This document shows, piece by piece, positions 4,968-37,071 of a DNA stretch of 64,000 bases. Source of the DNA: an uncultured Candidatus Saccharibacteria bacterium (GTDB lineage Bacteria > Patescibacteriota > Minisyncoccia > Phycocordibacterales > DATDWN01); the NCBI GenBank assembly GCA_964468795.1, contig CAYXWL010000001.1:147587-211586 (forward strand), read 5' to 3'. Position numbers and translations under genes: made by a program. The notes under the pieces were generated by a model that was given only the letters and a program-made list of their open reading frames with translations, searched no databases and had not been told where the DNA came from. How positions within the stretch are numbered: the first letter of the stretch is position 1; every line of letters begins with the position of its first letter.

Positions 4968-5180
4968 TCAATTCATGACTATATCCTGAAAACTGTCTCC
5001 CAGAAGCATGCTGAGCTCATCGAGGCCAATCGACAGCCTCCTTGCAAGCTCGACCGAGAAATTTCCATTGATGTAACACTGTAGGCGAATGTCCATGAGA
5101 TCGTCCCTGTCTACCGGATTGCCTGCATAAGCAGACTTTAGCACAGCAGTTGCATACTCTATGCAGAAAACACGACTCAT
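4968..5180 (-). CDS. hypothetical small protein (GC-rich, carries a GGAGG-type RBS)
   Basis: About 50% GC ORF (MSRVFCIEYATAVLK...) with AGGAGGGCTC-ATG ribosome-binding site, inserted between rplY and fba, whose genes lack SDs; no recognisable domain. Confidence 0.3.
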   Translation of the reverse strand: MSRVFCIEYATAVLKSAYAGNPVDRDDLMDIRLQCYINGNFSVELARRLSIGLDELSMLLGDSFQDIVMN

Positions 5181-5224
5181 GAGCCCTCCTCTACCACTAT
5201 TGCACAAATGTTACTTTTTTCAAA

Positions 5225-6091
5225 CTAGAAATTATTGAAGAACCTCAGCTTCTTATCTACAACTTCTTGAACTGACTTCACTGAAGTTTTTAGGAATTTG
5301 TATGGTGCTACCTCGTCTGGATTTTCAGACAGGCCTTTCATTAGGCCCTGTTTGTATGCTACTCGTATTTCTGTATTTATATGAACAATAGCTATGCCGT
5401 TTGCAATAGACTGCTTGAAATCATCTTCTGAATTTCCCGAACCTCCATGTAAAACAAGCGGAATACCAGTTATTTCTGCAATTTCCTTTACACGAACAAT
5501 ATTCAGCTTTGGATCAACTCCACCCTTGAGCATTCCATGAAAATTCCCTACTGCAGGCGCAAGCATGTCTATTCCGGTAAGCAAAACAAACTCCTTTGCT
5601 TTTTCTGGATTTGTTAGCGAGCTTTCATCAAGCATAACTCCTTCTGGTATTTCATCTAGCACTTTTGATGACTGGCCTATGTAGCCAAGCTCTGCTTCAA
5701 CCAAGACTTCTTTTCCGGAATTCCTAGCATACTCAACGCACTGCTTGGTCAATTTTACATTTTCCTCAAAGGAAAGCTTCGCACCATCAATGATCACCGA
5801 ATCAAATCCCGCATCAATCGCCTCTTTTACCCTGTCGAAGGAGTAAGTATGGTCAGCATTTAAGTAAATTGGATAATCAAACTCTTCTCTGATGCTTTTG
5901 ACCAAGGCCACTGCCTGCCTAACCCCAACAAAGTCCCTCTCGCCTTCCGAAACTCCAATTATTACTGGAACATTTAGGTTCTGTGCGGCCCTGAATATTC
6001 CCCATAAAGCTTCTAAGTTAGAAATATTAAAATGGCCTATTGCTACTTTTTTCTCTCGTGCTTCCTGCACAGATTGTTTCAGTGTTTTCAT
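5225..6091 (-). CDS. fba: class II fructose-bisphosphate aldolase
   Basis: 288 aa, class II ketose-bisphosphate aldolase pattern (…LHGGSGNSEDD…). Confidence 0.85.
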   Translation of the reverse strand: MKTLKQSVQEAREKKVAIGHFNISNLEALWGIFRAAQNLNVPVIIGVSEGERDFVGVRQAVALVKSIREEFDYPIYLNADHTYSFDRVKEAIDAGFDSVIIDGAKLSFEENVKLTKQCVEYARNSGKEVLVEAELGYIGQSSKVLDEIPEGVMLDESSLTNPEKAKEFVLLTGIDMLAPAVGNFHGMLKGGVDPKLNIVRVKEIAEITGIPLVLHGGSGNSEDDFKQSIANGIAIVHINTEIRVAYKQGLMKGLSENPDEVAPYKFLKTSVKSVQEVVDKKLRFFNNF

Positions 6092-6305
6092 GAAATTTAT
6101 TATAACATATCATTTTTAAGACACGCATATTTGTTTGATAACAAATTGCTACGCTCGGAAATCAAGAAAACAATCTTCTCGTTCCGGTGCCTTCTCGCAA
6201 ACTCGCTATCGCTCAAACAGTGCTCCAGGCACTCTTCCACTCGTCGTTGTTTTCTAATTTCCTGTGCGATGTCTAAAAAATGTTATGTTGTAAGCACTTC
6301 GTTGA

Positions 6306-6398
6306 CCCATATTATTTTAGGAGACTTCGCAAGGCGGGTAGCCGAGACTTGAGGAATTTTTCAGCAGAAAAATATCCGTGCTCCTAAAATGATATGGG
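6306..6398. repeat. Family-1 TIR element copy E2 (93 nt)
   Basis: 18-bp TIR cccatattattttaggag / ctcctaaaatgatatggg around the core gagacttcgcaaggcgggtagccgagacttgagg and an atttttc/gaaaaat hairpin; ends 47 nt upstream of the kinase ATG; flanked by tcgttga (left) and gagaaaga (right), as is E3. Confidence 0.6.
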
Positions 6399-6444
6399 GA
6401 GAAAGAAGTGCGGTAGTTGAGAACAATTTGTTATAATAAATTTT

Positions 6445-7437
6445 ATGAAAAATATTGATATGCTCGCTATCGGAGACGTGGTGATAGATGCTTTTATCAG
6501 ACTAGAAGATGCGGAAGTAAATTGCGATATAGACAAGCAGAACTGCAAGCTTTGCGTGAGATTTGGAGACAAGGTGCCATACGAATCAGTTGAGATCTGC
6601 AACGCGGTGGGAAACAGCGCAAACGCTGCCGTATCAGCATCACGACTTGGACTCAGCTCTGCTCTATTTACATATATTGGAGATGATCAAAACGGAAAAG
6701 ATTGCCTCGAGTCACTTAGAAAAGACGGAGTGCATGTTGATTACATACAGGCCCAAGCCGGAAAGAAGACAAATTATCACTATGTGCTTTGGTACGACGT
6801 TGATAGAACTATTTTAGTAAAGCACGAACATTTCAATTATGACTTTTCGAACGTTGAGCCTCCAAAATGGATATACCTCAGCTCTCTTTCAGAAAACTCT
6901 TTGGACTTCCACATGCAAATTGCAGATTTTTTGGAAAAAAACCCTGATGTAAAACTTGCTTTCCAGCCTGGAACTTTCCAAATGAGAATGGGCAAGGAAA
7001 AACTTTACAGAGTATATAACCGAACAGATATTTTCTTTTGCAATGTTGAAGAGGCACAGCTCATCTTGGGCGAAACGTCTCGAGAATTGCCTGTACTCAT
7101 GAAAGGTATTGCAGCGCTCGGCCCAAAGATCATCGTAATCACCGACGGATTTGCAGGAGCTTACGCAATGAGAGCAGAAAAAGAAGAAGAAATATTGTTC
7201 ATGCCGGTTTACCCACACACTCCATTTGAAAGGACAGGTGCAGGAGATGCTTATGCATCAACAGTTGTTTCAGCACTTGCTATGGGTGAGACTTTGGAGA
7301 CTGCACTAACATGGGCACCAATAAACTCTATGTCTGTAGTACAGCAAGTTGGCGCACAAAAAGGATTGCTTACACTAGAAAAATTAAAAGACTACCTAGC
7401 AAAAGCTCCCGAGGATTATAAACTCGGAAAGTTATAG
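6445..7437 (+). CDS. PfkB-family carbohydrate kinase (ribokinase-like)
   Basis: C-terminal GAGD motif (TGAGDAYASTVVSALAMG) and ribokinase-like N-terminal region; TATAAT 7 nt upstream of ATG (near-leaderless). Confidence 0.8.
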   Translation: MKNIDMLAIGDVVIDAFIRLEDAEVNCDIDKQNCKLCVRFGDKVPYESVEICNAVGNSANAAVSASRLGLSSALFTYIGDDQNGKDCLESLRKDGVHVDYIQAQAGKKTNYHYVLWYDVDRTILVKHEHFNYDFSNVEPPKWIYLSSLSENSLDFHMQIADFLEKNPDVKLAFQPGTFQMRMGKEKLYRVYNRTDIFFCNVEEAQLILGETSRELPVLMKGIAALGPKIIVITDGFAGAYAMRAEKEEEILFMPVYPHTPFERTGAGDAYASTVVSALAMGETLETALTWAPINSMSVVQQVGAQKGLLTLEKLKDYLAKAPEDYKLGKL

Positions 7438-7440
7438 ACG

Positions 7441-17303: not shown

Positions 17304-17545
17304 TATATTTTACCTAGTCTTTATTTTAAAACTGTAAGGCGACTAGCTCTCTCCTTTTCCCCGCTTGCGCACGAAAACCTATGAGAAACTTACATTAGCA
17401 ATATTATATCACTAAAGTAGATGAGAAGTCAATGAAGATTTTAAGGAGCTCTACGTAGCCACAATTACAGCTAAAAGTGGATAAGTACCGCTATTTTATT
17501 TGATTCCCTAAAGTCTACAGGTGTAAAATTATGAAAGGAGGGTCC

Positions 17546-17752: not shown

Positions 17753-17757
17753 CAAAG

Positions 17758-17785
17758 AAGAGCCCCGGCTACAACCGGGGCTCTT
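17758..17785. terminator. GC-rich hairpin (terminator-like)
   Basis: aagagccccgg-ctacaa-ccggggctctt between convergent genes. Confidence 0.4.
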
Positions 17786-17788
17786 AAC

Positions 17789-18472: not shown

Positions 18473-18619
18473 AATTTAAATATTGTATAGAAACATTATG
18501 AAGCAGGCTTAAAATATTGTCTATTTTCTCAAATAATATTGAATATTGACTTTTTTTTAAAATAGGTTAGTATTGGCCTCTGTATCCCAGATTCCCTGGG
18601 AGGTTCTTTGGGAGGAAAG

Positions 18620-24375: not shown

Positions 24376-24376
24376 A

Positions 24377-24778
24377 TTATTTCAAAATTTGAGGTATGAA
24401 ATCACGAGAAATTTTTCTGACTTGGGCCGAGGTTTTTCCTAAAATAGCAGATTTCATCAAGCGGTGTAAGCCATCTAAAATAAGCCAGCGACCTTTGTTT
24501 TCCATTATGTCTATGGGATGCACAAGGTCAGCTTTCATTGTTCTTTCGTATTCCTCCTTATGTGCTTCTGGATTATCTATAACTTCCTGTGGTTTGAGAT
24601 TATAAACCCCATTTTCCCAAAGGAAAGGAATATCAAAATGCCAAGTCAGCTCATCTGTACTGATTTCCTCTGGCCCCACTTCCAAAGCCCAGACTTTTTC
24701 TTCACTCCAGTCAAAATCAAAACCAACATCCTTGATGATTTGTGGAATTTCATTTGAATTGTTTTTTATTTCTTCCAT
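24377..24778 (-). CDS. hypothetical protein with ParB/Srx-like motif
   Basis: 133 aa; C-terminal …GRWLILDGLHRLMKSAILG… resembles the ParB/sulfiredoxin-fold DGxHR signature; translationally coupled to neighbours (TAATG overlap). Confidence 0.3.
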   Translation of the reverse strand: MEEIKNNSNEIPQIIKDVGFDFDWSEEKVWALEVGPEEISTDELTWHFDIPFLWENGVYNLKPQEVIDNPEAHKEEYERTMKADLVHPIDIMENKGRWLILDGLHRLMKSAILGKTSAQVRKISRDFIPQILK

Positions 24779-25311
24779 TATTTTTTATAAAATCCTGTAT
24801 CGGGGCAGGTTATCTGAATGAAAGCGTTTCGCAACGCCTCTTCCAAGCTGACTTCCCGTAGGATTGTTCCACCAGAATATGTGCCCCAAGTATCATTCGG
24901 CAGTTTTCCATATTCTTCTTCAATAATTGTCATCACATCGGAGTGTTCCATTTTGAGTTCGTCCATTTTCTTGAGAATAAAGTCTGGGACCTTTAATCCG
25001 CTTGAATAGCCGTAATACTCCTTGTCCTCAGTAATAATAACAGCCCAAGCTTCCTCATATATGTGCCCATATCGCTCTATAAGGCCACTTTCAAGACCTA
25101 TATAGTAATTTGCATCAGAGTGGCGAGATTTACTGTCCAACGCTCTGTTTTTTGCTCCATCAAAAGTTTGTTTGTCCCACGGAGTGTCTGGCATCAGCGA
25201 TTTGGCTCCGTAACTTTGTATTGAAACATCTTTATCGGCAAAAAACTGCTTGATGATTTTTTCAGCAATTTTTATTTTTCTATCACTTGATGAGCCGATT
25301 ACGAATTTCAT
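24778..25311 (-). CDS. YjjX/DUF84-like non-canonical NTP pyrophosphatase
   Basis: MKFVIGSSSDRKIKIAEKI…GAKNRALDS…YYIGLESGL pattern matching inosine/xanthosine triphosphatase (YjjX) family. Confidence 0.55.
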   Translation of the reverse strand: MKFVIGSSSDRKIKIAEKIIKQFFADKDVSIQSYGAKSLMPDTPWDKQTFDGAKNRALDSKSRHSDANYYIGLESGLIERYGHIYEEAWAVIITEDKEYYGYSSGLKVPDFILKKMDELKMEHSDVMTIIEEEYGKLPNDTWGTYSGGTILREVSLEEALRNAFIQITCPDTGFYKK

Positions 25312-25871
25312 TTTAGTGTCAAATGTTTTTTAAGTTTTTCCAATGCCAATTTTCTCATACTGAATGAGTTTTTTTCTTCGGCAGTCAGTTCACCAAAAGT
25401 TTTGGAATAGCCCTCTGGCTGGAATATAGGGTCCCAACCAAATCCAGTGCCTCTTGGTGATACAGTCGTTCCTTTTACTGCACCTTCAAAAAATTCAATG
25501 TTTCCGTCTAAATCAGAATGACCAATAATCGTTTTTGCTTCTGCGTTAAAATTTCCGAAAACAGTAATCATTTTATACAACCCATCGTTCCCGACAGTTT
25601 TCATAAACCATTTTATAAGAGGACCTGGCAAACCATTCATTGCTTCAAAATACAAAGATGTGTCCTCAACAATAAACTCACCCTTGTGATGTTTCTGGGC
25701 TTCTTCCAGCTTTGCCTTGATGATTTTGTGGGCATCAATTTCCTGTATTTCGGGAAGGTCAATATCCAATCCTTCTATAAAGTCGCCAAGAATTGCCTGA
25801 ACTTCTGCTAGCTTGCCTTTATTGCCAGTGAGAAAATAGAGTGGCGTCATATTAAGAATAATATAACACAA
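25308..25871 (-). CDS. RdgB/Ham1-family dITP/XTP pyrophosphatase
   Basis: LTGNKGKLAEV, EDTSL, NGLPGP, FGWDPIF motifs of Ham1/Maf-like ITPases; probable true start at the MTPLYF ATG (about 25850); 4-nt overlap with the downstream gene. Confidence 0.8.
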   Translation of the reverse strand: MCYIILNMTPLYFLTGNKGKLAEVQAILGDFIEGLDIDLPEIQEIDAHKIIKAKLEEAQKHHKGEFIVEDTSLYFEAMNGLPGPLIKWFMKTVGNDGLYKMITVFGNFNAEAKTIIGHSDLDGNIEFFEGAVKGTTVSPRGTGFGWDPIFQPEGYSKTFGELTAEEKNSFSMRKLALEKLKKHLTLK

Positions 25872-25903
25872 AAATTCATTTTACCCCATTATTCATATTT
25901 TGA

Positions 25904-26221
25904 TTAAGGTAAAAAATTTATTCTTATATAATCCCAAAAACTATATGCATAATCAATTATTTCTACACCAGTACTAGTAGGAGGTTGACCACATTTTGGA
26001 CATAGAAGTGCTTTATCGCTATCATATCTTATTCTACAAGGCTCACAGTAGCAGAGGTTGATACGAGTAGGCTTGTGTCGCATTTTTAAGTCTCTGAAAT
26101 GCTCATATGTATATTTAGACTCAAATTTTAGACCGCATACAGGGCAATTTTCTAGTTTCAATTTATTCTTGAACTCGTCTCTGCAACTAACACATGCTTG
26201 TATAAATCCGATTAGTTCCAT
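25904..26221 (-). CDS. double zinc-ribbon protein (four CxxC pairs), hypothetical
   Basis: C11xxC14, C26xxC29, C58xC60xxC63, C74xxC77. Confidence 0.4.
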   Translation of the reverse strand: MELIGFIQACVSCRDEFKNKLKLENCPVCGLKFESKYTYEHFRDLKMRHKPTRINLCYCEPCRIRYDSDKALLCPKCGQPPTSTGVEIIDYAYSFWDYIRINFLP

Positions 26222-26273
26222 ATTTTGCTATTATGCGTTTAATAATTGAAGGATAAGAAATGGTAGGGTTAAA

Positions 26274-26837
26274 TTATTTTGTAAACTTAAGTGAGGAAAT
26301 GATTATTCCTTCTTCTGTCATTGATTGGGTTCCATTCTCATCCCACATCAAAGAAATGACTATGCGATATTTATTATTTGGTGTATTTACGACAACCCAA
26401 GTACCGCCATCCATAGTAATCGCTTCTTGCCCGTCAATATTTAAAACATTGTAACCCTCTGAGAGGTCTTTCTTCGCATCATTTTTTAGCCATTCAAGAG
26501 GTGTAACACCTTTATTATTTTTAGACATCTCTATATGTATTCCACCATATGGGTCGCTTTTGCTTTCTAAAATTGATTTTGGCCAGATGTATAACTCAAC
26601 GGGTTCAAACTTATTTTCCACAAACATATGAGGCGGATACTGAAATGAAAAACCAACATCGCTTTTATAGGTCAGAAAACTTTTTTCATATTCATAATAT
26701 TCGTCTGAACCAACAATACTAGGTATGGGATTATGAGTTACTTCAGCGATTTTTGTCTCTTTATGTCTACTGTAGTAAAAAGTAAATGATATTACGCATA
26801 GAATGATAACAATTGATATAAGTATTTTTTTATTCAT
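26274..26837 (-). CDS. membrane-anchored secreted hypothetical protein
   Basis: N-terminal TM/signal anchor (MNKKILISIVIILCVISF); start moved to ATG at 26837 to avoid overlap with res. Confidence 0.4.
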   Translation of the reverse strand: MNKKILISIVIILCVISFTFYYSRHKETKIAEVTHNPIPSIVGSDEYYEYEKSFLTYKSDVGFSFQYPPHMFVENKFEPVELYIWPKSILESKSDPYGGIHIEMSKNNKGVTPLEWLKNDAKKDLSEGYNVLNIDGQEAITMDGGTWVVVNTPNNKYRIVISLMWDENGTQSMTEEGIIISSLKFTK

Positions 26838-26866
26838 ATTTTGATTCAGTATGCAACTTATTACTT

Positions 26867-29095
26867 CTACAACTCCAAATGTTCCCAGTCTGTCCAATCA
26901 TTCTCTTTCAAATTTTTACCATCGCCTTTGTAGACCATCCAACGGCCAGAAAAGTGGCTAGGGTCTGTATTAGCAACAATACCACCAAAGAGTTTCTGCT
27001 TCTTGCCAGCTCTGGCTGTGTAGGCCACCAAACCGCTTGATTTGGCTCCAAAATCGGCTAAATAGGCTCCGTGAGGGTCAAAAAGGCCGATACTGCCATC
27101 TTTCATCATTACCACGAAATCAACATAGAACGGAGCCATTTCATCGCCTAATTTATAAGGCACGGCAAAGAAGGTCCCGTCTCTTTCTCCGTTTTTAAAC
27201 CACCATTCCACCTTGTTATTTTTCTTATCCAAAAATTCAATAAACGCTTTTTCAGACTGCCAGCGTTTATCTGAAAAGAATGGCTCCATAACAGATTTAT
27301 TGACCTCCATTTCTTCGTAATTTTCGCCGAAGACCATTTTCTCTGGCACATCCCATTCACTTTGGACCAGCTCGTTGTTGCGTTTTTCCGTAGACGAGAT
27401 ATAGGTGATTTTGGCATCGTCAATGACTGCTTCAAAAAGAGATTTGTTATCCTCGCTCAAAACAGTGTTGATTATCTCTTGGAATTTTTCCAATTTCGGC
27501 ATACCAAGCTCTTTATCAAAAAACTGGTAGATTGACTCTTTGAGACGACCTACTGACCTATCTTCTGGATGAAATGGTGAAAGGTTTCGGTAAATGAAAT
27601 AGTCAAATAGTCTCTGTAAATCAGCATCACTTCCCATATCAACGAGCACCGTAGCTTTAATGTGTTCACCAGCGATAGTGTCTATGTTTTCTGTTCGCCA
27701 ATCGGAAATGAAAGCCGAATGGACTTTCTGATTTTTCAGTTTGATTTTATCCGCCAGTTTTGACTGTTTGGCTTTCTCCAAAAAGAGAGAAGTGAAAAGT
27801 GGGCTCAAGCGGGTCTGCTCACGATGGCGTTTGCTATGGACCGATGAAAGATTTATCGGCTCATATTTTGGCGACCTGTTGCTGATATGGATAACCACAT
27901 AATCCCGCCCGATGTCTTCCTTGATTTCAATGCCTTCAAGGTTGGTGTAAACATAAGCATAATTGAGCATATCGTCCTTGTAGTAGCCGATTTCTGGTTC
28001 TGGCACACGCATAATCCTGCCAATGGTTTGAATAGAGAAAATGGGACTGGACCATTCTCGGAAAAGGACCAAAATTTGAGCTCTTGGGCAATCCCAACCC
28101 AGAGCGATAGCTTGTTTGAAAATAAGGACTTCTACTTCGCTGTCGTTGCGTTTGATATTGTCGGAATTTTCTTTATTCTCTGCCAAGTAGAAAGCTAGCT
28201 TGCCATTTTTGGTGGTGATATTGTGTTTGTCTGCCAGTATCTTTACAAGCATTTCTTGTCTGTCATCATCACCTTGACCACGCCTGTCTGGAAGCTGGAT
28301 TAGGAGAAGTGGATTAACTGAAATTTTACCCGCTTTGTATTTCTTGGCTAGGTCTTCTCGTTTTTTTAAGGCAATGTCCAAAATAACTTCATCAGAGCTG
28401 TTAGCCAGTTCGCTTTTGACTATATCTGAATTGTTTTTCTGGACAACATTTTTGAAATTCTCATTGAGGACCACCGCTTTCTTTATCATCTCCTCGGCTT
28501 TGACCTCGGCAATGTCCACGCTAACAATCTTGTCTGGGTTAGCCATTACAGGAGTAGCGGAAACTTCAATAGTCAAATCCGGCTTGATAGCGGAAATAAG
28601 GTTTTGTGAGGTTTCTGCTTGAGCGTGGAAATGACTCTCGTCTATGATGAGAATAATTTTTCTGTCAGCTTCCCGTGTTCGGCTGATTATATTTGAAAGA
28701 TTGTTGTCTTGCTCGTTATCTCGTATGTAAATGTTGCCGTCCTGTCTGATACTTTCCCAGTTGAAAAAGAGAACCTCGTTTTCATCTATTTGCCTGTCGT
28801 TTAAGTCTTCAAAGAAAGAACATTCCATCGCCCGTGATTTTTCAAAATACAGCTCAATTTTTTCTTTGCTCTGCTCGTGGAGCTGACGAGGAGCGGTCCA
28901 GATGAATGAGCAAGGGGTATGTCTTTTGTCATCGGCAAATCTTGTTAGAAATTCAGCCACCATTATGGTCTTGCCCGAACCAGTAGGAGCTTTGAAAACT
29001 AGCTTTTTCCCATCACTAATTTTCAAAAGACGAACTGCATCATCTAGCAATTCTTGGGTATGTTCATCTTGATATGTTGTTAGCTTAAAAGCCAT
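26867..29095 (-). CDS. res: Type III restriction endonuclease Res subunit (SF2 helicase-like)
   Basis: Walker A KAPTGSGKT and DExH box IIDESH; immediately downstream of mod and translationally coupled (29097/29095). Confidence 0.7.
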   Translation of the reverse strand: MAFKLTTYQDEHTQELLDDAVRLLKISDGKKLVFKAPTGSGKTIMVAEFLTRFADDKRHTPCSFIWTAPRQLHEQSKEKIELYFEKSRAMECSFFEDLNDRQIDENEVLFFNWESIRQDGNIYIRDNEQDNNLSNIISRTREADRKIILIIDESHFHAQAETSQNLISAIKPDLTIEVSATPVMANPDKIVSVDIAEVKAEEMIKKAVVLNENFKNVVQKNNSDIVKSELANSSDEVILDIALKKREDLAKKYKAGKISVNPLLLIQLPDRRGQGDDDRQEMLVKILADKHNITTKNGKLAFYLAENKENSDNIKRNDSEVEVLIFKQAIALGWDCPRAQILVLFREWSSPIFSIQTIGRIMRVPEPEIGYYKDDMLNYAYVYTNLEGIEIKEDIGRDYVVIHISNRSPKYEPINLSSVHSKRHREQTRLSPLFTSLFLEKAKQSKLADKIKLKNQKVHSAFISDWRTENIDTIAGEHIKATVLVDMGSDADLQRLFDYFIYRNLSPFHPEDRSVGRLKESIYQFFDKELGMPKLEKFQEIINTVLSEDNKSLFEAVIDDAKITYISSTEKRNNELVQSEWDVPEKMVFGENYEEMEVNKSVMEPFFSDKRWQSEKAFIEFLDKKNNKVEWWFKNGERDGTFFAVPYKLGDEMAPFYVDFVVMMKDGSIGLFDPHGAYLADFGAKSSGLVAYTARAGKKQKLFGGIVANTDPSHFSGRWMVYKGDGKNLKENDWTDWEHLEL

Positions 29096-29096
29096 A

Positions 29097-30791
29097 TTAT
29101 TTTTTGAAAATACGCCTATATACCCGCAAAATAACTTCGGGTATCGGGGCTACTGTTACTTTTTCTTTGACATCTTCAAATTCTTCTTCAAAGGTGTCAT
29201 CGCCGAGAGAGAAAATGTAAACACTCCATTTTCCGCCAATTTTGGCGATGTCTTTTTTGAGAGACGAGATAGAACCTTCGTCAAAAAGAATGGCTGTATA
29301 TTGCTTTTCATTCTTGAAAATTTTTATGGCCATGGTTTCCTTCACTTCCTCAAAAGTGTTTTCTCTGACACAGAGCATCTCCGTAGCTTCTCTGGTTAGA
29401 GTCTCCTTGTTTTTATCGTTTGGCTCGGCTTCTACGAAAGCCGTGCGGAAGTATTTCAAATTGCTAGGTATGCCAGTTATATCTTTGTAATCTTTATGAC
29501 CAGCGATAACAGATTTAATTCGTGGATAGCATACTTCTGTTGCGATGCCATTTTCATTGTTGGTGCAGAGAATAAATTGGCGTAATCCGTTATCTCTTTT
29601 ATTTAGCAGTGAGACAGCGTGTCCAGTAGTTCCACTTCCAGCAAAAAAGTCCAAAATCACCGCATCCTTTTTATCTTTAGCTGTGGCTAATAGACATTCT
29701 TCAACCGCATATAATGACTTTGGGAAAGGAAACATTGTGCCAGTCAGCCCATTAACCATCTTTGAACCATACTCGTTTGCATCATATTTAGGTCCAACCC
29801 AAACAGTCTTATATGGAGCCTCATCTTTGGAGCGATATATTTCAAACCTGCCTTTAGAAGTCTTCTTTATGTGCAACTCTGAAATTATTTCTTCAACAGT
29901 ATTTCTTGAATAAGACCATTTCCTTTCAATACTGTTTATGTCTATAGGCCAAACCTCAAATACACCCTTTTTTATTTCAGTAGTTTGTTTTTTGGGATGA
30001 AATTTCTCATCTGCCACTTCGCCTACACCAATAATTTTTTCGCCAGATACTATAAATGGGTAAAAACAGGTTTTTGCTGTATGACGAGGGGAATTGCTTC
30101 CGTCAACTCTGAAATTTCTCACCAGAGTTTCTTCACGAAGTGCATTACTTATATATTTTTCCTTGGCATCTGGATAAACAAAAACAGCATACTCGTGATT
30201 ATATGAAAAATTTTTACCCTGAACTCCTCGGGGATTGTGAACCACTGAAATTGAATCAACTTTTTTGCCTACAAAAATTTGTTTAAGCAGGAGTACCAGA
30301 TTAGCGTGTTCGTTTTCATCAATGGCACAAATCAGACAACCATTCTTTTTCAAAAGATTTTTCGCAAGGACCAATCTTCTCTCCATCATGCTCAACCATT
30401 TGCTATGTCTGTATGAGTCATCTTTATCTACATAATTATTGTTATATTTCCAATTTTTTGCTCCCGTATTGTAAGGCGGGTCAATATAAATAACATCAAT
30501 CTTGCCTTTATGTGTGTAGTTTAATACAGAAAGAGCGTGGTAATTATCTCCTTCAATAAGTAGGTTTGTGGGGGTATTTTTATTTTTGAAAATATGCTTA
30601 TTTTTTACCTCTTTCAAAACAGGCAATTCAGTATTGCATTGCTCAACAACATCTTCTATCTTTTCCTCCCAAACCAATCCATATTTTTTGCGTTTTCGTA
30701 AACGCTCAATTTCTGCAACAAATTGCTCTTTGGTCCAATTACCATATTTATCTGTTTCCACCACAATAGGTGATTGTAATTTTTCAGGCAT
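29097..30791 (-). CDS. mod: Type III R-M Mod subunit (beta-class N6-adenine DNA methyltransferase)
   Basis: DPPY motif IV (IYIDPPYNTG) precedes motif I (LDFFAGSGTTGHA), the beta-class order typical of Type III Mod. Confidence 0.8.
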   Translation of the reverse strand: MPEKLQSPIVVETDKYGNWTKEQFVAEIERLRKRKKYGLVWEEKIEDVVEQCNTELPVLKEVKNKHIFKNKNTPTNLLIEGDNYHALSVLNYTHKGKIDVIYIDPPYNTGAKNWKYNNNYVDKDDSYRHSKWLSMMERRLVLAKNLLKKNGCLICAIDENEHANLVLLLKQIFVGKKVDSISVVHNPRGVQGKNFSYNHEYAVFVYPDAKEKYISNALREETLVRNFRVDGSNSPRHTAKTCFYPFIVSGEKIIGVGEVADEKFHPKKQTTEIKKGVFEVWPIDINSIERKWSYSRNTVEEIISELHIKKTSKGRFEIYRSKDEAPYKTVWVGPKYDANEYGSKMVNGLTGTMFPFPKSLYAVEECLLATAKDKKDAVILDFFAGSGTTGHAVSLLNKRDNGLRQFILCTNNENGIATEVCYPRIKSVIAGHKDYKDITGIPSNLKYFRTAFVEAEPNDKNKETLTREATEMLCVRENTFEEVKETMAIKIFKNEKQYTAILFDEGSISSLKKDIAKIGGKWSVYIFSLGDDTFEEEFEDVKEKVTVAPIPEVILRVYRRIFKK

Positions 30792-30794
30792 GAT

Positions 30795-30849
30795 GACTAT
30801 GAGTACCTACACCACATAATGTATCACAAAAATAGTGGTACTCATAGTC
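30795..30849. promoter_or_regulatory. C-box-like operator: perfect 13-bp inverted repeat GACTATGAGTACC…GGTACTCATAGTC
   Basis: Arms at 30795..30807 and 30837..30849 separated by 29 nt, in the mod / C-gene divergent region; GACT…AGTC symmetry as in known controller-protein operators; ends 38 nt upstream of the HTH gene. Confidence 0.45.
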
Positions 30850-30886
30850 CGTCGCCTTATAGACATCAGACCTCTAGGCTTAAGGC

Positions 30887-31108
30887 ATGAGCAAGAGTAG
30901 CCCCATTTTAAAGAAATTTGGAAAGCGAGTAATAGAACTCCGCTTACAAAAAGGCTTCACTTCCCAAATTGCTTTAGCTAATAAAGCCAATATGGACCGA
31001 ACCTATATTGGTGGCATTGAGCGAGGTGAAAGGAATATCTCCTTGGTTAATATTGAAAAGCTGGCAAAGACGCTTGGTATCAGTTTGGAAGAATTGTTCA
31101 GACTCTAA
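30887..31108 (+). CDS. XRE-family HTH protein, controller (C-protein)-like
   Basis: 73 aa, Cro/C1-type HTH (…QIALANKANMDRTYIGGIERGERNISLVNIEKLAKTLGISLEELF). Confidence 0.75.
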   Translation: MSKSSPILKKFGKRVIELRLQKGFTSQIALANKANMDRTYIGGIERGERNISLVNIEKLAKTLGISLEELFRL

Positions 31109-31139
31109 ACAAGGTGTATTCTTAAGTGAAAAGAACGCC

Positions 31140-32354
31140 ATGATTTCTAGCAATCTAGAACGCCATTTTCATAGCTTTATTGAGGAGACAAATCTTCTTA
31201 ATTTTTCTAAAGGTTTAGCCGAATATTTGGAGTATGTATTCAGTGTGCCAGAACTAAAAAATGTTTTTTCACAACAGCTCGGGGAAAGAAATGCTGATTA
31301 TGCAAAATTGAATGAGCTTGCTGAAAAAAATCTTGCTGAAATTAAGGAGGCAAAAACAAAACTTATTAAATGTTTAAAAAAGAGAAAAATTTATATTGAT
31401 GACTTGAATCGTATTTTTACTCACCCCCACAACACAGGAAGGAATTTTTTTGAAGAGCTGGATGCTTTTGAAAAAGGAGATGGTTTGTATTCTAGTATGT
31501 CATTGGCTGATGTAATTGATAATTATCTTTTTGATATGGCAGTAAATTTACTCAATGCTGGTTATCAAGAAGATGTTGAGGAATTTTTAGCTAGACCGGA
31601 CGATTATACTGTGAATAAGGTATGTCGTAATGATTATATTATGATTGATGGTCATCCAGGGTCTTTTGTGTTCTCTAGGGCATATTTTGAGCGTCAAAAT
31701 ATGAAAAAGTTTATTGAACAAGGTAGAGTATTAAAAACTTGGGGAGAATTTGAAAAACTTTATCAATTTAGACAAGGATATAAAGAAAGCTTGGGTATAC
31801 ATGACCCTATGAAAGATTGGGAGCATGGCCCGGGAGAATTTGGTATTGATGAGGATTTGATATATATAGCCAGAATCCATAATGAATTGAATAACTTGGT
31901 AAAAAAACATGGACCATTTCCGCGAGAAGATAACCCCTTGGAATATTTGTCGCAGAGTAAATTTGTCCAACCAGTCAAAACGGTTCACAATATTTTGATG
32001 CTTGTCGCATCAAGTAACAAAAAGGAAGAAAAAAATGAATCCGGTCTTTGGATTTCTAAAAATAAGACCACAGGTGAGTATTATTTTGATGATAACAAAA
32101 TCCATTTTCCTAGCCCAAATGCAAAATATGTAAAAATTTTTGAAACCGTGTATGAAATTATCCCGAAAGGTGGTCGCATTTCTTATTCCCAAATTACTAA
32201 ATATAAGAAGTCAGAAGTGCAGAGGGCGTTGACTGGAGAAAATGCCAACTTTTTTCATTATGTTAAATCGGCAAGACGTACTCCCCAGAAAGGCATCCCA
32301 CTTTTTCATGCATCAAGCGACGGAAAAGAGCTGATTTTCAATAATCAGCGTTAA
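31140..32354 (+). CDS. hypothetical 404-aa protein downstream of the C-protein gene (candidate restriction/abortive-infection effector)
   Basis: No recognisable motifs; start taken at ATG 31140 (the longer ORF-track start overlaps the HTH gene); followed by terminator 32384..32412. Confidence 0.5.
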   Translation: MISSNLERHFHSFIEETNLLNFSKGLAEYLEYVFSVPELKNVFSQQLGERNADYAKLNELAEKNLAEIKEAKTKLIKCLKKRKIYIDDLNRIFTHPHNTGRNFFEELDAFEKGDGLYSSMSLADVIDNYLFDMAVNLLNAGYQEDVEEFLARPDDYTVNKVCRNDYIMIDGHPGSFVFSRAYFERQNMKKFIEQGRVLKTWGEFEKLYQFRQGYKESLGIHDPMKDWEHGPGEFGIDEDLIYIARIHNELNNLVKKHGPFPREDNPLEYLSQSKFVQPVKTVHNILMLVASSNKKEEKNESGLWISKNKTTGEYYFDDNKIHFPSPNAKYVKIFETVYEIIPKGGRISYSQITKYKKSEVQRALTGENANFFHYVKSARRTPQKGIPLFHASSDGKELIFNNQR

Positions 32355-32383
32355 CTCATCTCATCTCGTTTGTGGATTATCTG

Positions 32384-32412
32384 AAAAATCACCGCTCCAG
32401 TGGTGATTTTTT
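32384..32412 (+). terminator. rho-independent terminator
   Basis: aaaatcacc-gctccagt-ggtgatttt followed by a T-run. Confidence 0.6.
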
Positions 32413-32603
32413 GGCTACGAATAAAGAAAAAATATTTAAACAGAAGAATCCAGAGAAGTACAGACGACCTATCAGACTTGAAATAATGGCTTTAAGCCAA
32501 GCTTTTCCTTGTACGACTTGGAACGCCCAAAACATGCAAGCCAATTTTTTGCTTGACCTGTCCCAGGCGTTCGGGATGGTTCAAGCAAAAAGCGGGCTTC
32601 ACT

Positions 32604-32780
32604 ATGTTACCAGAAGAAGCCATTAAAGAATTTAAAATTCTTTACAAAAAAGTTTTTGGTATAGAGCTCACAGATAGTGAGGCAATTTTTCGTGCCAATA
32701 ATCTTTTGAGACTCTACAAAGTCATTTACAAGGCATCTCCTGCGAACATGGTCAAAGGAACGCAAAATGGCCAGGTATGA
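32604..32780 (+). CDS. small hypothetical ORF
   Basis: 58-aa ORF (MLPEEAIKEFKILYKK…) in the island; weak support. Confidence 0.2.
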   Translation: MLPEEAIKEFKILYKKVFGIELTDSEAIFRANNLLRLYKVIYKASPANMVKGTQNGQV

Positions 32781-33177
32781 CCCACGAAAAATTTCTCAAC
32801 ACAAAAGTTACACAATCAAAGAATTGTCAGAGCTTTTGGAAATGAGTGAAAAAACCTGCGGTCGGTGGATTGAGCAGGGGTTGCCGACTGTTCCAGGTAG
32901 CCACAAGCCGATTCTCATACTAGGTGATGATGCAAAAATTTTTATTAGAAACAGGAATATTAAGGTCGTAATTAAGTTAAAACGCCATGAGTTTAATTGT
33001 TTTAAATGTAAGTGCCCGAGACGGGCCAAGAAGGGTTCAATAGGTGTATCCGGGAACATAAAAAGGGGGTTGTGCAGTGTTTGCAACTCAAAAATGTGCA
33101 AGACAATTCACCCTACCAAAAAGGACTATAAGATACCGCCTACTCCTACACAAATGTCCATGTTTAACAATATTTAA
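32767..33177 (+). CDS. HTH + zinc-ribbon DNA-binding protein (excisionase/regulator-like)
   Basis: YTIKELSELLEMSEKTCGRWIEQGLP helix-turn-helix, then CxxC…CxxC; immediately upstream of the recombinase genes. Confidence 0.45.
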   Translation: MARYDPRKISQHKSYTIKELSELLEMSEKTCGRWIEQGLPTVPGSHKPILILGDDAKIFIRNRNIKVVIKLKRHEFNCFKCKCPRRAKKGSIGVSGNIKRGLCSVCNSKMCKTIHPTKKDYKIPPTPTQMSMFNNI

Positions 33178-33190
33178 TCTTATCACTATA

Positions 33191-34288
33191 ATGACAAATT
33201 TCAGCTACAAAAATGAGCAAATTAAGAGGCAGTTTTTTGAGCATCTAAAAGGGGCCGCTGGCTTCGCCGATGAGTCCATAGATAAGTTTGCGGAAGCGGT
33301 TTATCAATGGCAGATTTTCAGCGGAGATGAGGATTTTGAAACTTTCAATAAAGAGAAGGCATCTAAATTCTGTGAATGGCTCAAAACAAAAGAGGCAAAG
33401 ACCAGTTCTGGCAAGCTGTCTTTGCCAACCCAATATAATTATCTCCGTAGAGTTAAGAAGTTTTTCACTTGGCTTACTGAACAACCAGATTACAGAAAAA
33501 GTATTCGTAAAACAGATGTGGATTTTTTGAGATTATCCAAAAAGGATGCTCGTATTGCTACTTCCGGCACAACAAAAAGGATACCGACTTTTGACGAAGC
33601 TAGAAAGGTAATAGAAAGCATAGAAATTGAAAATGAAATTGACCAACGAGATAGGGCCATCCTTTCCTTTGCCCTTATTACTGGTATGCGTATTTCAGCC
33701 ATTTCAACTTTGAGAATGAAGAATTTTGACAGAGAAAGCGAATTGATTGACCAAAATCCTGGCGATGGAGTGCAGACCAAATATTCAAAAAAGATACTCA
33801 CTACTTTTTTCCCGATAGGATGGGATGGACCAAAAAAATACTTTCTTGAATGGTACGACTATCAACTTGCTCGAGGAGCAAAACCAAATGAACCGATTTT
33901 TCCTTCAACTAAAAAAGGATTTTCAGAAAAAAGTTTTAGCAAGACGCTTGTGAGCGAGGATTTTTGGAGCAGTTCCGGTGGTGCAAGAAAAATCTTTGAG
34001 AAAAGGTGTATAGATGCTGAAGTGCCATATTTTCATCCTCACTCTTTCAGACATTTGATTGTGTCTGTAATGAGCAAGACCAGGTTGACGGAAGAAGAAA
34101 AGAAAGCAGTCAGTATGAATCTTGGCCATGACAATGTGGGCACCACTTTCGGCTCGTATGGCTATGGTGGTATGAGTTTGCATGATGCTGTAAATATCGT
34201 TAAAAAAATCACTTTAAACCAAAATGACGATATTCAGATTTCATCGGACGAAAGAGATGTTTTGCTAAAACTATTGAAGAAATTATGA
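33191..34288 (+). CDS. tyrosine-type site-specific recombinase / integrase
   Basis: C-terminal catalytic region with HPHSFRHL (HxxR) and LGH…Y; SAM-like N-domain. Confidence 0.8.
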   Translation: MTNFSYKNEQIKRQFFEHLKGAAGFADESIDKFAEAVYQWQIFSGDEDFETFNKEKASKFCEWLKTKEAKTSSGKLSLPTQYNYLRRVKKFFTWLTEQPDYRKSIRKTDVDFLRLSKKDARIATSGTTKRIPTFDEARKVIESIEIENEIDQRDRAILSFALITGMRISAISTLRMKNFDRESELIDQNPGDGVQTKYSKKILTTFFPIGWDGPKKYFLEWYDYQLARGAKPNEPIFPSTKKGFSEKSFSKTLVSEDFWSSSGGARKIFEKRCIDAEVPYFHPHSFRHLIVSVMSKTRLTEEEKKAVSMNLGHDNVGTTFGSYGYGGMSLHDAVNIVKKITLNQNDDIQISSDERDVLLKLLKKL

Positions 34289-34305
34289 TATAATTAAGTA
34301 TCACT

Positions 34306-35925
34306 ATGAACGCCACACCAAAACTCATTTATGGTAATTATTGCAGAAAATCCACGGAGTCGGAAGACCGTCAGATGCTTTCTATTGATTCACAAATTGA
34401 TGAAGGGAAAAAGATTGCTGATACGCTGGGCATAAAAATTGCTCCAAATCATCTCCTCACTGAATCTAAATCAGCTAAAACCACAGGAAAGAGGGCTAAA
34501 TTTGAGGAGATGTTGAGAATGATTGAAAAAGGTGAAATAAACGCCATCATCGCCTGGCATCCAGACAGACTTTCAAGAAATTCCATTGATGCCGCTCGGC
34601 TTATTGAACAGATGGATAAAGGCAACCTTATAGAAATAGTAACTCCCGGCCAGGCCTACAAAAATACTCCGATTGATAAGTTTATGCTCATGCTCCAATG
34701 CAGTCAGGCCAAAATGGAAAATGACAAAAAGGGCGTTGATGTAAGAAGAGGATTGCATAAAAAAGCCAGTCTTGGAAAGTATCCAGGACCGGCCCCTATC
34801 GGCTATAAAAATGATAAATATGCAGAAAAGGGAGATAAGGTTCCTCTGCCGGACGAAGAAAGATTTCCACTTGTCCGAAAAATGGTAGACCTTATTCTCA
34901 CGGGAAATTACACAGTTGCCCAAGTCTGGAGGATGGCAAAAGATGAATGGGGTGTAACTATGCCAAGCGGAAAGAAAATCGGCAGGGCTACTGTTTACAG
35001 AATTTTTTCAAATCCTTTTTATTACGGAAAATATGAGTACCCTCTAAAAAGCGGAAATTGGTATGACGGAGTTCACACCAAATTGATGGAGCCAGAAGAA
35101 TACGACAAAATCCAGTTTCTCCTTGGTAAAAAAGGAAAACCTCGCCCAAAATCTCACATCTTTGATTTTACTGGCATGATGCGATGCGGAGAATGCGGAG
35201 CGGCTATCACTGCCGAGTTGAAAATTAAAAAACAGAAAAACGGCAATATTCATTCCTATATCTATTACCACTGCACCAAACGGGTAAATCCAAATTGCTC
35301 GCAAGGGTCCATAGAAGAAACGGAGTTGAAGAAACAAATCATTAAGGAAATTCAAAGCATAGAAATTCCGTCTGAATTTCACAGCTTTGCTATGAAGTGG
35401 TTCAAAAAAGAAAACGAAAAAGAATCCAAGGAGCAAAACTCAATCGTTGATAGCCAGCAAAGATCATATAAAGCTTGTCTTGCGAAGATTAGTGGTCTTA
35501 CCGATATGAGAGCCGGTGGAGAAATTTCAGCAGACGAATTTGCTGAAAAACGGTCCGTACTTTTGTCTGAAAAGAAAAAACTAGAGGACTTGTTTGCCCA
35601 GACCGGTAAGCGAGTAGACAAATGGGTTGAGACTGGAGACAGGATGTTTGATTTTATTGAGAACGCCAAATTCAAATTTGAAAATGGTCCGATTGAAACA
35701 AGACGGGAGATTCTTTCTACATTAGGTTCGGACCTCATCTTGAAAGACAAAATATTGAGTATTGATATAGACAATTCACTCTTTACATTAAAAAGAGTCT
35801 CAAAAACCTTGCACGGCATAAAGAAACGGTTAGAACCTGTAAAAAATGGCGATAAACAAAAAGAATTTGACCGTTTGTGCAGTCAAAATCTCGTAATGCG
35901 GAGGATAGGAGATTCGAACTCCTGA
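34306..35925 (+). CDS. large serine recombinase
   Basis: N-terminal resolvase domain (YCRKSTESEDRQ…), recombinase domain and zinc ribbon (CGECGAAIT…YYHCTKR); its last 27 nt overlap tRNA-Ser. Confidence 0.8.
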   Translation: MNATPKLIYGNYCRKSTESEDRQMLSIDSQIDEGKKIADTLGIKIAPNHLLTESKSAKTTGKRAKFEEMLRMIEKGEINAIIAWHPDRLSRNSIDAARLIEQMDKGNLIEIVTPGQAYKNTPIDKFMLMLQCSQAKMENDKKGVDVRRGLHKKASLGKYPGPAPIGYKNDKYAEKGDKVPLPDEERFPLVRKMVDLILTGNYTVAQVWRMAKDEWGVTMPSGKKIGRATVYRIFSNPFYYGKYEYPLKSGNWYDGVHTKLMEPEEYDKIQFLLGKKGKPRPKSHIFDFTGMMRCGECGAAITAELKIKKQKNGNIHSYIYYHCTKRVNPNCSQGSIEETELKKQIIKEIQSIEIPSEFHSFAMKWFKKENEKESKEQNSIVDSQQRSYKACLAKISGLTDMRAGGEISADEFAEKRSVLLSEKKKLEDLFAQTGKRVDKWVETGDRMFDFIENAKFKFENGPIETRREILSTLGSDLILKDKILSIDIDNSLFTLKRVSKTLHGIKKRLEPVKNGDKQKEFDRLCSQNLVMRRIGDSNS

Positions 35926-35985
35926 AGGGATTGCTCCCTTACCCGCTTTCCAAGCGAGCGCACTAGACCACTATGCGAACCCTCC
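35899..35985 (-). tRNA. tRNA-Ser (anticodon GGA), class II
   Basis: GGAGGGT/ATCCTCC acceptor stem, anticodon loop TTGGAAA, long variable arm, T-arm AGGAG-TTCGAAT-CTCCT. Confidence 0.7.
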
Positions 35986-36027
35986 GTTTCTATATCATGT
36001 TATAGAAATACAAAATTATTTCAAATA

Positions 36028-36474
36028 CTAATACTCGTCTATCACTATCTTCTTTTGTTTCATCATTACATTCCAACCATTTGGTTTTGCCAAAAGCTCA
36101 CCTAAATTTTTTGGAATTACCTGCCATCTTAGACCGTATTTATCTATACACCATCCGCACTGAACCTCCTTCCCTTCCTTTGTAAAATAATTCCAATAAT
36201 TATCAATCTCATTCTGATCATCGCATTCTATAGTCAAAGCAAAAGCATCGTTAAAGCTGTCATGCGGAATTTCAGTATTCATTATTGAATACTTTTGGCT
36301 AAATATGTGTGCTTCGCATATTTGTGTTTTACCGCTAGGAGTTTCTCCTATATTCTGAACATTTCCTGCAGTAAAAACTTCCCCAAAAACTTCTTTATAA
36401 TACTCAAGAATATTTGAAATATCTCCTCCGTCCACAGAAAACCACAATGATGGAACGATTTTATTTTGATTCAT
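36028..36474 (-). CDS. PhnB-like VOC (glyoxalase-fold) protein
   Basis: IVPSLWFSVDGG… and DKYGLRWQV signatures of the PhnB/3-demethylubiquinone-MT-like family. Confidence 0.55.
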   Translation of the reverse strand: MNQNKIVPSLWFSVDGGDISNILEYYKEVFGEVFTAGNVQNIGETPSGKTQICEAHIFSQKYSIMNTEIPHDSFNDAFALTIECDDQNEIDNYWNYFTKEGKEVQCGWCIDKYGLRWQVIPKNLGELLAKPNGWNVMMKQKKIVIDEY

Positions 36475-36504
36475 ATTGATATTATATTATCACTGATCAT
36501 ACCT

Positions 36505-36542
36505 CAGACAAAACAAAAGGAGAGTGGCTGTCCCACTCTCCT
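36505..36542 (-). terminator. terminator of the GC-rich Nudix gene
   Basis: aggagagtgg-ctgtc-ccactctcct stem followed on the minus strand by a U-rich tract. Confidence 0.55.
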
Positions 36543-36555
36543 ACTAAATCTATTT

Positions 36556-37071
36556 CTACTGCGCCAAGATGCCGATCTTCACCTTCCCAACAAGTTCTCT
36601 CTGCCCTGGCCCATATGTAGCCTGAATACTCATTGGATAGACCGAGTAGTATTCGATACTCGAAAGGATCTTTGGCAACCATTCCTTATCTCCAGGCAAA
36701 AGAAGCTCTGGAGGAAATTTGGGAATGTCGCTCCATGAGTACTGCTTGGGATTTGTCATGGTGCTGGTTGGCCTTATCTTGCCGAACCATGCCAATGCAA
36801 GAAGGATGTGAACCTTCCAGGCAGAAGTCGTACCGTCCTGCTCTTGGTTATTGAAAATTCCGCGAGCAACGTACAGAAGATCGTTTGGACGCACTTCTGC
36901 CCCAGCCGTTTCCTCTTTGAACTCTCGACATGTGGCACTAATCGGATTTTCTCCGACCTCCATCTTGCCACCATAGCCGTTGAGCCTACCACTTCCCACC
37001 TTGCCAACTTTCTTGGCAAGCCAGATCTTTTTCTTTACTTTGTCTATCGGAAAAACCAGAACTGCTTCCAT
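36556..37071 (-). CDS. Nudix hydrolase (about 50% GC cassette with its own RBS and terminator)
   Basis: Nudix box GGKMEVGENPISATCREFKEETA; GGAGGAGG RBS. Confidence 0.75.
   Translation of the reverse strand: MEAVLVFPIDKVKKKIWLAKKVGKVGSGRLNGYGGKMEVGENPISATCREFKEETAGAEVRPNDLLYVARGIFNNQEQDGTTSAWKVHILLALAWFGKIRPTSTMTNPKQYSWSDIPKFPPELLLPGDKEWLPKILSSIEYYSVYPMSIQATYGPGQRELVGKVKIGILAQ

Follow-up and report, generated by a model that had tools for sequence, protein, structure and literature searches.

Ribosomes blind to the Shine-Dalgarno (SD) sequence have been described in Bacteroidia, where the anti-SD is sequestered by bS21, bS18 and bS6, and a strong SD on rpsU serves for autoregulation, as in Flavobacterium johnsoniae (PMC7797042, PMC9976891, PMC13000453). 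Horizontal gene transfer (HGT) islets and mixed initiation modes, the latter seen in Actinobacteria and Deinococcus (GeneMarkS-2 "group C"; PMC3160421, PMC6028130), are also already known in principle. Here we analyze a 64-kb stretch of contig CAYXWL010000001.1 (the window), in which eight open reading frames (ORFs) with an SD and an unusually high GC content at third codon positions (GC3) are scattered among genes without an SD. We consider it likely that the eight are SD-led accessory cassettes, autonomous and of mixed age, in an SD-less, largely leaderless genome from the candidate phyla radiation (CPR).

By analogy, the SD-blind ribosomes of Bacteroidia would be the closest documented parallel: there, as here, nearly all genes lack an SD, a small minority have a strong and conserved one, and native genes seem to be SD-indifferent. 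However, Bacteroidia possess the anti-SD and have the SD on a core ribosomal gene, whereas here a relative (L070; related loci and contigs are numbered with an L) lacks the anti-SD, and the SD genes are GC-rich and accessory or imported. Native initiation also differs, being apparently largely leaderless here and Kozak-like in Bacteroidia. As in Actinobacteria and Deinococcus, a –10 box is found approximately 7 nt before many first-in-operon starts, and there is a second, leadered SD-bearing set, but in those bacteria leadered and operon-internal genes commonly have an SD, with no link to composition, whereas in the window the SD coincides perfectly with atypical GC3. The resemblance to known HGT islets and tRNA-linked islands includes atypical GC3 and codons, patchy syntenic presence, homologs in distant phyla, tRNA adjacency and one att-flanked integrase island; unlike such islets, six of the eight cassettes are single genes with no mobility gene or recognizable repeats, and some are positionally conserved across relatives without ameliorating. 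Integron cassettes, in which a single ORF close to a promoter is likewise followed by an inverted-repeat element, were considered and rejected, as no intI, attI, attC-type site or array is seen, the units are dispersed and have their own promoters, and their inverted repeats are terminators with T-runs. In full-text literature searches we found no description of SD-led genes in Parcubacteria and one paper on anti-SD loss there (Tsurumaki et al., 2022; PMC9297842). It deals with the same phylum-level group, and the 16S tail of L070 agrees with it, but it covers rRNA only, and a residual SD-led gene class and its composition are not reported there.

The SD-led class was obtained by scanning every GGAGG in the window, and comprises seven ORFs listed in a first-pass annotation made from the sequence alone, plus a new one at 54702–54908 (minus strand). 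Coordinates and starts of the seven stand as listed, and identical proteins have been called independently by the source annotation. All eight ORFs have a purine-rich, CCUCC-complementary motif 4–9 nt upstream of the start: GGAGG 4–5 nt before ATG in seven of them, including all six for which a strong site had been claimed, and only GGAG, 6 nt before ATG, in the Nudix gene at 22810–23346. For statistics on starts and composition, we curated a set of 68 genes, made up of the eight SD-led ORFs and 60 others, with 49 native genes. GGAGG ending 3–8 nt before ATG is present at seven of these 68 gene starts, compared to 1.1% of 2222 ATGs in the window (binomial 9e-6), and a chance origin is excluded. 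Duplex energies of the five starts scored are –9.8 to –12.5 kcal/mol with the E. coli 16S tail. Internal GGAGG+ATG sites in rplY, nrdB, gap, DUF192, SLT, GGDEF and other genes were rejected as starts, the Pfam domains beginning upstream of them.

The same eight ORFs are set apart by composition. Their GC3 is 0.46–0.70 vs. 0.354 ± 0.044 in native genes (n = 49), with no overlap (Mann–Whitney p = 6e-10), their synonymous-codon likelihood z-scores range from –1.8 to –6.4, and all of them look compositionally like horizontally acquired genes; no GC3-rich gene without an SD is found in the window. This is not the native-like codon usage that was named in the first-pass annotation as a mark of highly expressed native genes. 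Another explanation, that the ORFs are ordinary native genes owing both the SD and the GC-ending codons to very high expression, agrees with their strong promoters and terminators and with the positional conservation of some members in relatives. We nevertheless find it very improbable: native genes presumed to be highly expressed (rpsB, rplY, rpmE, groEL, gap) lack an SD and are at the bottom of the GC3 range, with 0.29–0.34, the eight ORFs use codons avoided there, most cassettes are missing from the same sites in relatives, and two have their nearest relatives outside CPR.

The background against which these ORFs stand out is only moderately AT-rich (39.9% GC in the window), which tempers an earlier description. 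Core genes are represented by rpsB, prfA, rpmE, rplY, fba, tkt, rpe, rpiB, gap, nrdAB, groEL, RNase J and htpX, and there are three tRNA genes. NrdA of the class I ribonucleotide reductase is 66–81% identical to proteins from many metagenome-assembled genomes (MAGs) labeled Parcubacteria, Zambryskibacteria, Taylorbacteria or Paceibacterota, which points to a Paceibacteria-type member of Patescibacteria (CPR); a metagenome scan with NrdA for closer relatives, which could have dated the insertions, gave no match above 81% identity. As had been noted for a smaller set of genes, an SD is absent: neither GGAG nor GAGG occurs within 22 nt upstream of the start in any of the 60 other (native or island) genes. 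A TATAAT-like –10 hexamer ends 6–7 nt before ATG in 15 of these 60 genes, and 5–9 nt before it in 22, extending an observation made earlier for several genes; its position at 6–7 nt is the expected signature of leaderless mRNAs. Native leadered and operon-internal genes likewise have no SD. An example is the gene of an RRM-type RNA-binding protein, which, contrary to the first-pass description, is leadered, with a TTGACT-18-TATAAT promoter and no SD adjoining ATG. Its leader of ~95 nt, in the region 17304–17432 (minus strand), is strongly conserved across relatives (L009–L023, L107–L109: …AATGTAAGTTTCTCATAGGTTTTCG…GGAAAAGGAGAGAG…TAGTCGCCTTACAGTTT…) and is probably a cis-regulatory RNA.

Judging by predicted signals, each SD-led ORF forms a self-contained promoter–SD–ORF–terminator unit; ORFs of no named family are denoted below by their lower coordinate. 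Cassette 1 (4930–5223, minus strand), between fba and rplY, has a promoter-like TTGAAA-16-AATAGT (5223–5196), GGAGG at 5189–5185 (GAGGAGGgctcATG), an ORF of 70 aa with no family (4968–5180) and a hairpin at about 4962–4930. Cassette 2 (17500–17795, plus strand) is antisense to its neighbors, the RRM and PPIase genes, and consists of a promoter-like TTGATT-18-TAAAAT (17500–17529), GGAGG at 17537–17541 (AAGGAGGgtccATG), an ORF of 68 aa with a Cys/His motif (17546–17752) and a bidirectional terminator (17758–17785). In cassette 3 (18546–19541, plus strand), a promoter-like TTGACT-16-TAGTAT (18546–18573) and GGGAGG at 18610–18615 (GGGAGGaaagATG) precede an ORF of 287 aa (18620–19483; GC 0.59, GC3 0.69) with a terminator at 19501–19531. 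The product has a signal peptide and a PEP-CTERM motif, the latter at residues 262–286 (PF07589, 29.1 bits at a cut-off of 20.7; TIGR02595, 28.5 bits at a cut-off of 16); a general Pfam scan, limited to the proteins of the window, revealed no exosortase. Directly downstream of this cassette is tRNA-Gly(CCC) (19592–19663, minus strand), followed by tRNA-Ser(CGA) (19847–19932, plus strand). Cassette 4 (21040–21621, plus strand) has GGAGG at 21040–21044 (TGGAGGgttccATG), an ORF at 21050–21571 and a bidirectional terminator (21583–21611). Its 173-aa product has no family and is predicted to be all-helical, and the AlphaFold2 (AF2) model, with mean predicted confidence (pLDDT) of 82, has no significant fold match in PDB.

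Cassette 5 (21850–22790, minus strand), with AGGAGG at 22750–22745 (CAGGAGGttctaATG), an ORF of 270 aa (21927–22739) and a terminator at 21891–21860, lies at the left edge of the mobile island described below. Its product is modeled as a TIM barrel (AF2 pLDDT 90.8), the best PDB fold matches being TrpF structures 1nsj and 4wui, with a template-modeling (TM) score of 0.73–0.75 on the target and 12–13% identity. The window protein has no Pfam or NCBIfam match, its homologs reach TrpF (PF00697) only at E = 0.005, below the cut-off, and a PDB sequence search gave no match; hence, we ascribe to it a predicted TrpF-like fold and do not treat it as a demonstrated TrpF. Cassette 6 (22780–23390, minus strand) has a weak SD, GGAG at 23356–23353 (only GGAGaaaaacATG), a Nudix ORF of 178 aa (Nudix178, 22810–23346) and a terminator at 22811–22790. 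Another Nudix protein, of 171 aa (Nudix171, 36556–37071), is encoded in cassette 7 (36508–37110, minus strand; SD with spacing GGAGGAGGcagatATG), with a –10 box TATAGT, GGAGGAGG at 37084–37077 and a terminator at 36542–36518. Finally, cassette 8 (54552–54955, minus strand) comprises a promoter TTGACT-18-TATTAT (54955–54926), GGAGG at 54918–54914 (CGGAGGctagtATG), the 54702–54908 ORF, a GC-rich 3′ region and a terminator at 54574–54562; the 68-aa product is zinc-ribbon-like, with a CPHC...C..IC pattern, and the GC content of the ORF is 0.56.

Terminators of their own had been ascribed to a part of these ORFs. Indeed, the top five hairpin terminators in the 4–24 kb region and the strongest one in the 36–56 kb region all belong to SD-led ORFs, with the qualification that the 4968 hairpin has no clear T-run. 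Several of the best promoter-like sites of the window also precede SD-led ORFs. Where recognizable, –10 elements are located 14–25 nt before ATG, and the predicted transcripts would therefore begin at or just before GGAGG.

The cassettes are real parts of the genome. Junctions of cassettes with native genes recur in contigs of at least eight samples, produced by three assembly pipelines (L001–L007, L088, L160–L166): the RRM/17546/PPIase/PEP-CTERM/M10/21050 order is found again in L001–L004, the fba/4968/rplY junctions in L088, and 54702 has the same neighbors on 15 contigs from at least six samples. Moreover, the 3.1-kb Logan strain contig L160, spanning PEP-CTERM, both tRNAs, M10 and 21050, differs from the window by a single nucleotide. 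An assembly or binning artifact, with reads of a high-GC organism joined chimerically into a CPR contig, had been proposed as one of two initial explanations, and abrupt local shifts of GC, up to 0.59 in a background of 0.40, would be expected from it. It is refuted by identical junctions recurring in at least 4–8 assemblies that are independent of one another, and the promoters and bidirectional terminators of cassettes interlock with neighboring native genes, so that we give it practically no credence.

In 80 related loci, GGAGG at positions –14 to –4 precedes 29 of 1590 ORFs (1.8%), compared to 10 of 1097 internal controls (0.9%), and the clade as a whole is SD-poor. The SD-led ORFs of relatives are again GC-rich outliers (GC z-score p = 7e-6) and are concentrated in the closest relatives, where the SD is associated with high GC3 (odds ratio 8, p = 9e-8). 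The PPIase, RRM, DUF192, M10, nrdB and GGDEF genes are syntenic in relatives, and most cassettes of the window are missing from the same spacers; in particular, PEP-CTERM, 21050, TrpF-like and Nudix178 genes are absent from the orthologous position, with the flanks conserved. Nudix171 has a positional homolog in L010, which is 33% identical, leaderless and of native GC.

The PPIase–M10 spacer is an insertion hot spot, holding different GC-rich SD-led genes in different lineages. At insertion hot spots of relatives, an SD-led GC-rich gene of a secreted 147–148 aa protein is seen in L009 (1393–1839) and L045 (4627–5070), and that of a 448-aa protein, in L015 (5878–7224) and L109 (3472–4818), with GC of these genes 0.47–0.59 against 0.38–0.40. 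The promoter and SD regions upstream of L009_148 and L012_122 are nearly identical, although different proteins are encoded; the promoter may have stayed in place, with cassettes exchanged behind it.

The small members show another pattern. The RRM–PPIase spacer is 135–175 bp long in about 20 relatives. In three cases (the window, L009 and L107), it is occupied by an SD-led ORF of 68–71 aa, in the same orientation; the three products align collinearly and share Cys/His positions, with weak similarity by sequence (E = 0.05). The fba–rplY spacer of L010 (20654–20872) contains a 33%-identical, SD-led homolog of 4968 with a GC content of 50%. A family with no copy in the window (fam91), of Cys-rich 89–92 aa proteins with multiple CxxC, is encoded downstream of nrdB in five relatives (L014, 6789–7064; L011, 14187–14462; L015, 15531–15806; L137, 4997–5275; L104, 6480–6749), its genes retaining GGAGG, GC3 of 0.48–0.64 and a conserved GC-rich terminator. 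Its divergence keeps pace with that of NrdA (67% identity at 96% identity of NrdA, 35–45% at 80%), and the family therefore appears to be vertically inherited. 4968 and 17546, like similar families in relatives, also appear to be vertically inherited, with both SD and high GC3 kept, and recent, un-ameliorated foreign DNA cannot explain such small, positionally conserved members.

For 4968, 17546 and 54702 one could alternatively suggest structured RNAs of high GC, or mobile-element remnants with chance ORFs, given that none of the three has a Pfam or NCBIfam match, that GC-rich DNA is poor in stop codons, and that 54702 contains an antisense ORF. This we consider improbable, as the folding z-scores of SD-led transcripts are only –1.0 to –2.1, with much of the signal coming from terminators, there is no Rfam match, and the counterparts share the ORF length, the order of SD and ATG, and the Cys/His positions.

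For PEP-CTERM and 21050, import from high-GC, SD-using donors is well supported by comparison with homologs. The PEP-CTERM protein has 275 homologs, the nearest ones outside the species at 63–66% identity. One of these (63%) comes from an Acidobacteria MAG, from a 299-kb contig with 67% GC and with citrate synthase, biotin synthesis and OmpA genes as neighbors, and another near homolog, from a 2.4-Mb contig of proteobacterial type with 62% GC. In the neighbor-joining tree, the window protein groups with the Acidobacteria copy and not with those of other CPR members; copies from two Minisyncoccota MAGs with 55% GC branch elsewhere, which implies separate transfers. In these two MAGs, the gene is SD-led as well (AAGGAG), with most of its neighbors lacking an SD. 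For 21050, 59 homologs were found at 39–55% identity, and those with available context (44–49%) reside on Vicinamibacterales-type contigs with 63–67% GC and have GGAGG 4 nt before ATG. The family has amino-acid composition of the high-GC type and GC3 of about 0.8–0.9, while the window copy is shifted toward the low-GC type, with GC3 of 0.46. In L099 (5163–6513), L100 (5161–6513) and L101 (3837–5123), the 21050 homolog always follows a gene of a 212–219 aa Nudix protein; in the island-free configuration of the genome studied here, 21050 is ~1.4 kb from Nudix171, which is not detectably related to these Nudix proteins linked to 21050 on Vicinamibacterales-type contigs.

Transfer of the TrpF-like gene and Nudix178 is supported by mobility, as both are cargo of an island absent from a sister strain; the TrpF-like family (1708 representatives) is broad and of mixed composition. 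The first-pass suggestion of repeated acquisition from a high-GC, SD-using donor is thus supported for these four genes, via homologs for the first two and mobility for the other two, and is not sufficient for small, positionally conserved members such as 4968 and 17546; no single donor emerges. The taxonomic best matches are likewise uneven, with Acidobacteria for PEP-CTERM, Vicinamibacterales for 21050, a broad family for the TrpF-like protein, and, apart from the positional one in L010, no homolog of Nudix171 in a word-indexed search. Phage origin was considered and rejected: scans of viral contigs gave no relative of the TrpF-like protein or Nudix171 and, for 17546, one weak partial match of 28 residues. 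A plasmid origin was rejected as well, as 72,556 plasmids searched by tblastn contained no match to the TrpF-like protein or to 4968.

The island (21783–35904; 14,122 bp) is present in the window and L001, and is absent from the strain contig L002, which joins window position 21782 directly to 35905 and runs from the 21050 gene to tRNA-Ser(GGA) and Nudix171. It is flanked by 8-bp direct repeats TGCGGAGG at 21775–21782 and 35897–35904, the latter being the 3′ end of tRNA-Ser(GGA) (35898–35985, minus strand), the integration site on the attR side. Precise presence/absence boundaries, the tRNA-derived repeat and site-specific recombinases characterize it as a tRNA-targeted integrative island. Besides cassettes 5 and 6, it carries genes of an APH-type kinase, a DUF84 NTPase and a Ham1 ITPase, a type III restriction–modification pair (res, 26867–29095; mod, 29097–30791) and, on the attR side, a tyrosine integrase (33077–34288) and a large serine recombinase (34306–35925, plus strand). 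All genes of the island other than the two cassettes have native-like composition and no SD, so that the recombinases and mod, initially counted as native, are native-like in composition and not in location.

Nudix, the APH-type kinase, the DUF84 NTPase, the Ham1 ITPase and the TrpF-like barrel make up a run reminiscent of nucleotide "house-cleaning". The ORF of the large serine recombinase extends ~20 nt beyond the island boundary into the tRNA gene, and its last codons are therefore supplied by the attachment site. To the left of the island, there is a tRNA-like element (21626–21755, minus strand) with a 9-bp closing stem GGAGGAUAG/CUAUCCUCC and two long hairpins (minimum free energy z = –4.85), whose 3′ part resembles the 3′ end of tRNA-Ser. 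Strains with and without the island both have this element; it has no Rfam or ARAGORN call, and may be a remnant of an older att site.

The central question is whether the SDs are read. In family members from relatives, GGAGG or AGGAG at –15 to –4 is retained in 11 of 12 non-index cases, with differing flanking non-coding bases, and the SD with a spacing of 4–6 nt persists in orthologs of 33–67% protein identity. As motif and spacing are conserved across orthologs with diverged non-coding positions, the 30S subunit would be able to pair with GGAGG at least sometimes, and we think that the SDs of the eight cassettes are probably still used.

Several observations weigh against this, and against our interpretation in general. 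A search for the 16S 3′ motif in the window and 166 related loci gave a sole match, in L070 (1–260), ~1.2 kb upstream of DUF192–nrdA; no rRNA was found in the window, in contigs of the same species, or in 9 kb to the left of the window. The 16S rRNA of L070, a relative with 65% identical NrdA, ends with ...GCUCGUGGAAUAAUUCAAUUU, without CCUCC, having GGAAUAAUUCAAUUU after helix 45 instead of GGAUCACCUCCUUA, and only 48% of Parcubacteria were reported to have a detectable anti-SD motif (Tsurumaki et al., 2022; PMC9297842). Internal GGAGG is not avoided in native genes of the window (observed/expected 0.98 in the synonymous shuffle; 0.95 in close relatives), unlike SD-using control loci (0.69, z = –3.8; for GGAG, 0.68, z = –7), which suggests that the ribosome is normally indifferent to SDs. 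Moreover, transfer does not account for the high GC3 that persists in members inherited vertically, donor identity is based on 44–66% identical homologs and a few named MAGs, and the counterparts of 17546 are only weakly similar.

It is possible, though we favor it less, that the SDs are non-functional relics: the anti-SD would be lost or hidden, the passengers translated poorly or in an SD-independent manner, and GGAGG not yet decayed. The L070 tail, the published losses and the tolerance of internal SD motifs all fit this explanation, as do the near-background SD use in the 80 related loci and the initiation of leadered native genes such as RRM without any SD. However, it does not easily account for retention of motif and spacing in diverged orthologs with diverged 5′ regions, for the amelioration of 21050 in GC3 with its SD intact, or for the presence of an SD at every GC3-rich gene of the window.

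We return to functional SD-led cassettes. Native genes would be translated without an SD, largely from leaderless mRNAs, and the eight scattered single-gene units, each with a sigma-70-type promoter, a short leader, GGAGG, ATG 4–6 nt further, an ORF with GC-ending codons and an intrinsic terminator, would produce leadered mRNAs depending on their own SD for initiation. The leaders, starting at or near GGAGG, are predicted to be mostly about 10–20 nt long, and longer for PEP-CTERM and probably 21050. The sites occupied are spacers that hold other accessory genes in relatives, positions beside tRNA genes, or the edge of the tRNA-Ser island. The origins are mixed: at least PEP-CTERM and the 173-aa protein were transferred from high-GC, SD-using, Acidobacteria-like Gram-negatives and brought the SD along, two further cassettes are carried by the mobile island, and the small Cys-rich proteins appear to be older, fast-evolving residents of the clade.

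A stronger version of this scheme, which we regard as doubtful, posits two initiation channels, an SD-blind, mostly leaderless default for core genes and a selected, SD-dependent one for GC3-rich accessory genes, i.e., imported surface and enzyme genes and fast-evolving small zinc-ribbon proteins. Only ribosomes with an exposed anti-SD would then read SD genes, forming a specialized-ribosome regulon similar to the Bacteroidia bS21 switch and independent of it, and the SD together with unusual codons would serve for insulation or regulation and would not be merely left over from transfer.

Two observations concern other parts of the window. An operon-like run at 47563–52529 (minus strand) encodes two GH130 (mannoside phosphorylase) proteins, a mannose-6-phosphate isomerase-type cupin and a phosphomannomutase-like HAD hydrolase, which points to salvage of mannan or mannosides by this CPR bacterium. 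At the right end (63282–63965, plus strand), there is a gene of an Imm11-family immunity protein; such proteins are associated with polymorphic toxin systems.

There has been hardly any study of how CPR bacteria initiate translation, and one genome here offers a checkable contrast between a leaderless, SD-free core and SD-led, GC3-rich accessory genes. For gene calling in CPR MAGs, this means that start models trained on ribosome-binding sites will misplace native starts and favor the odd genes. The imported members point to gene flow from Acidobacteria-like neighbors or hosts into an episymbiont lineage, and may give a clue to the host. The observations also bear on why anti-SDs persist or vanish where SDs are unused. 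Functional SDs would constitute a second, independent case of a reserved SD channel; non-functional ones would show how long dead initiation signals survive.

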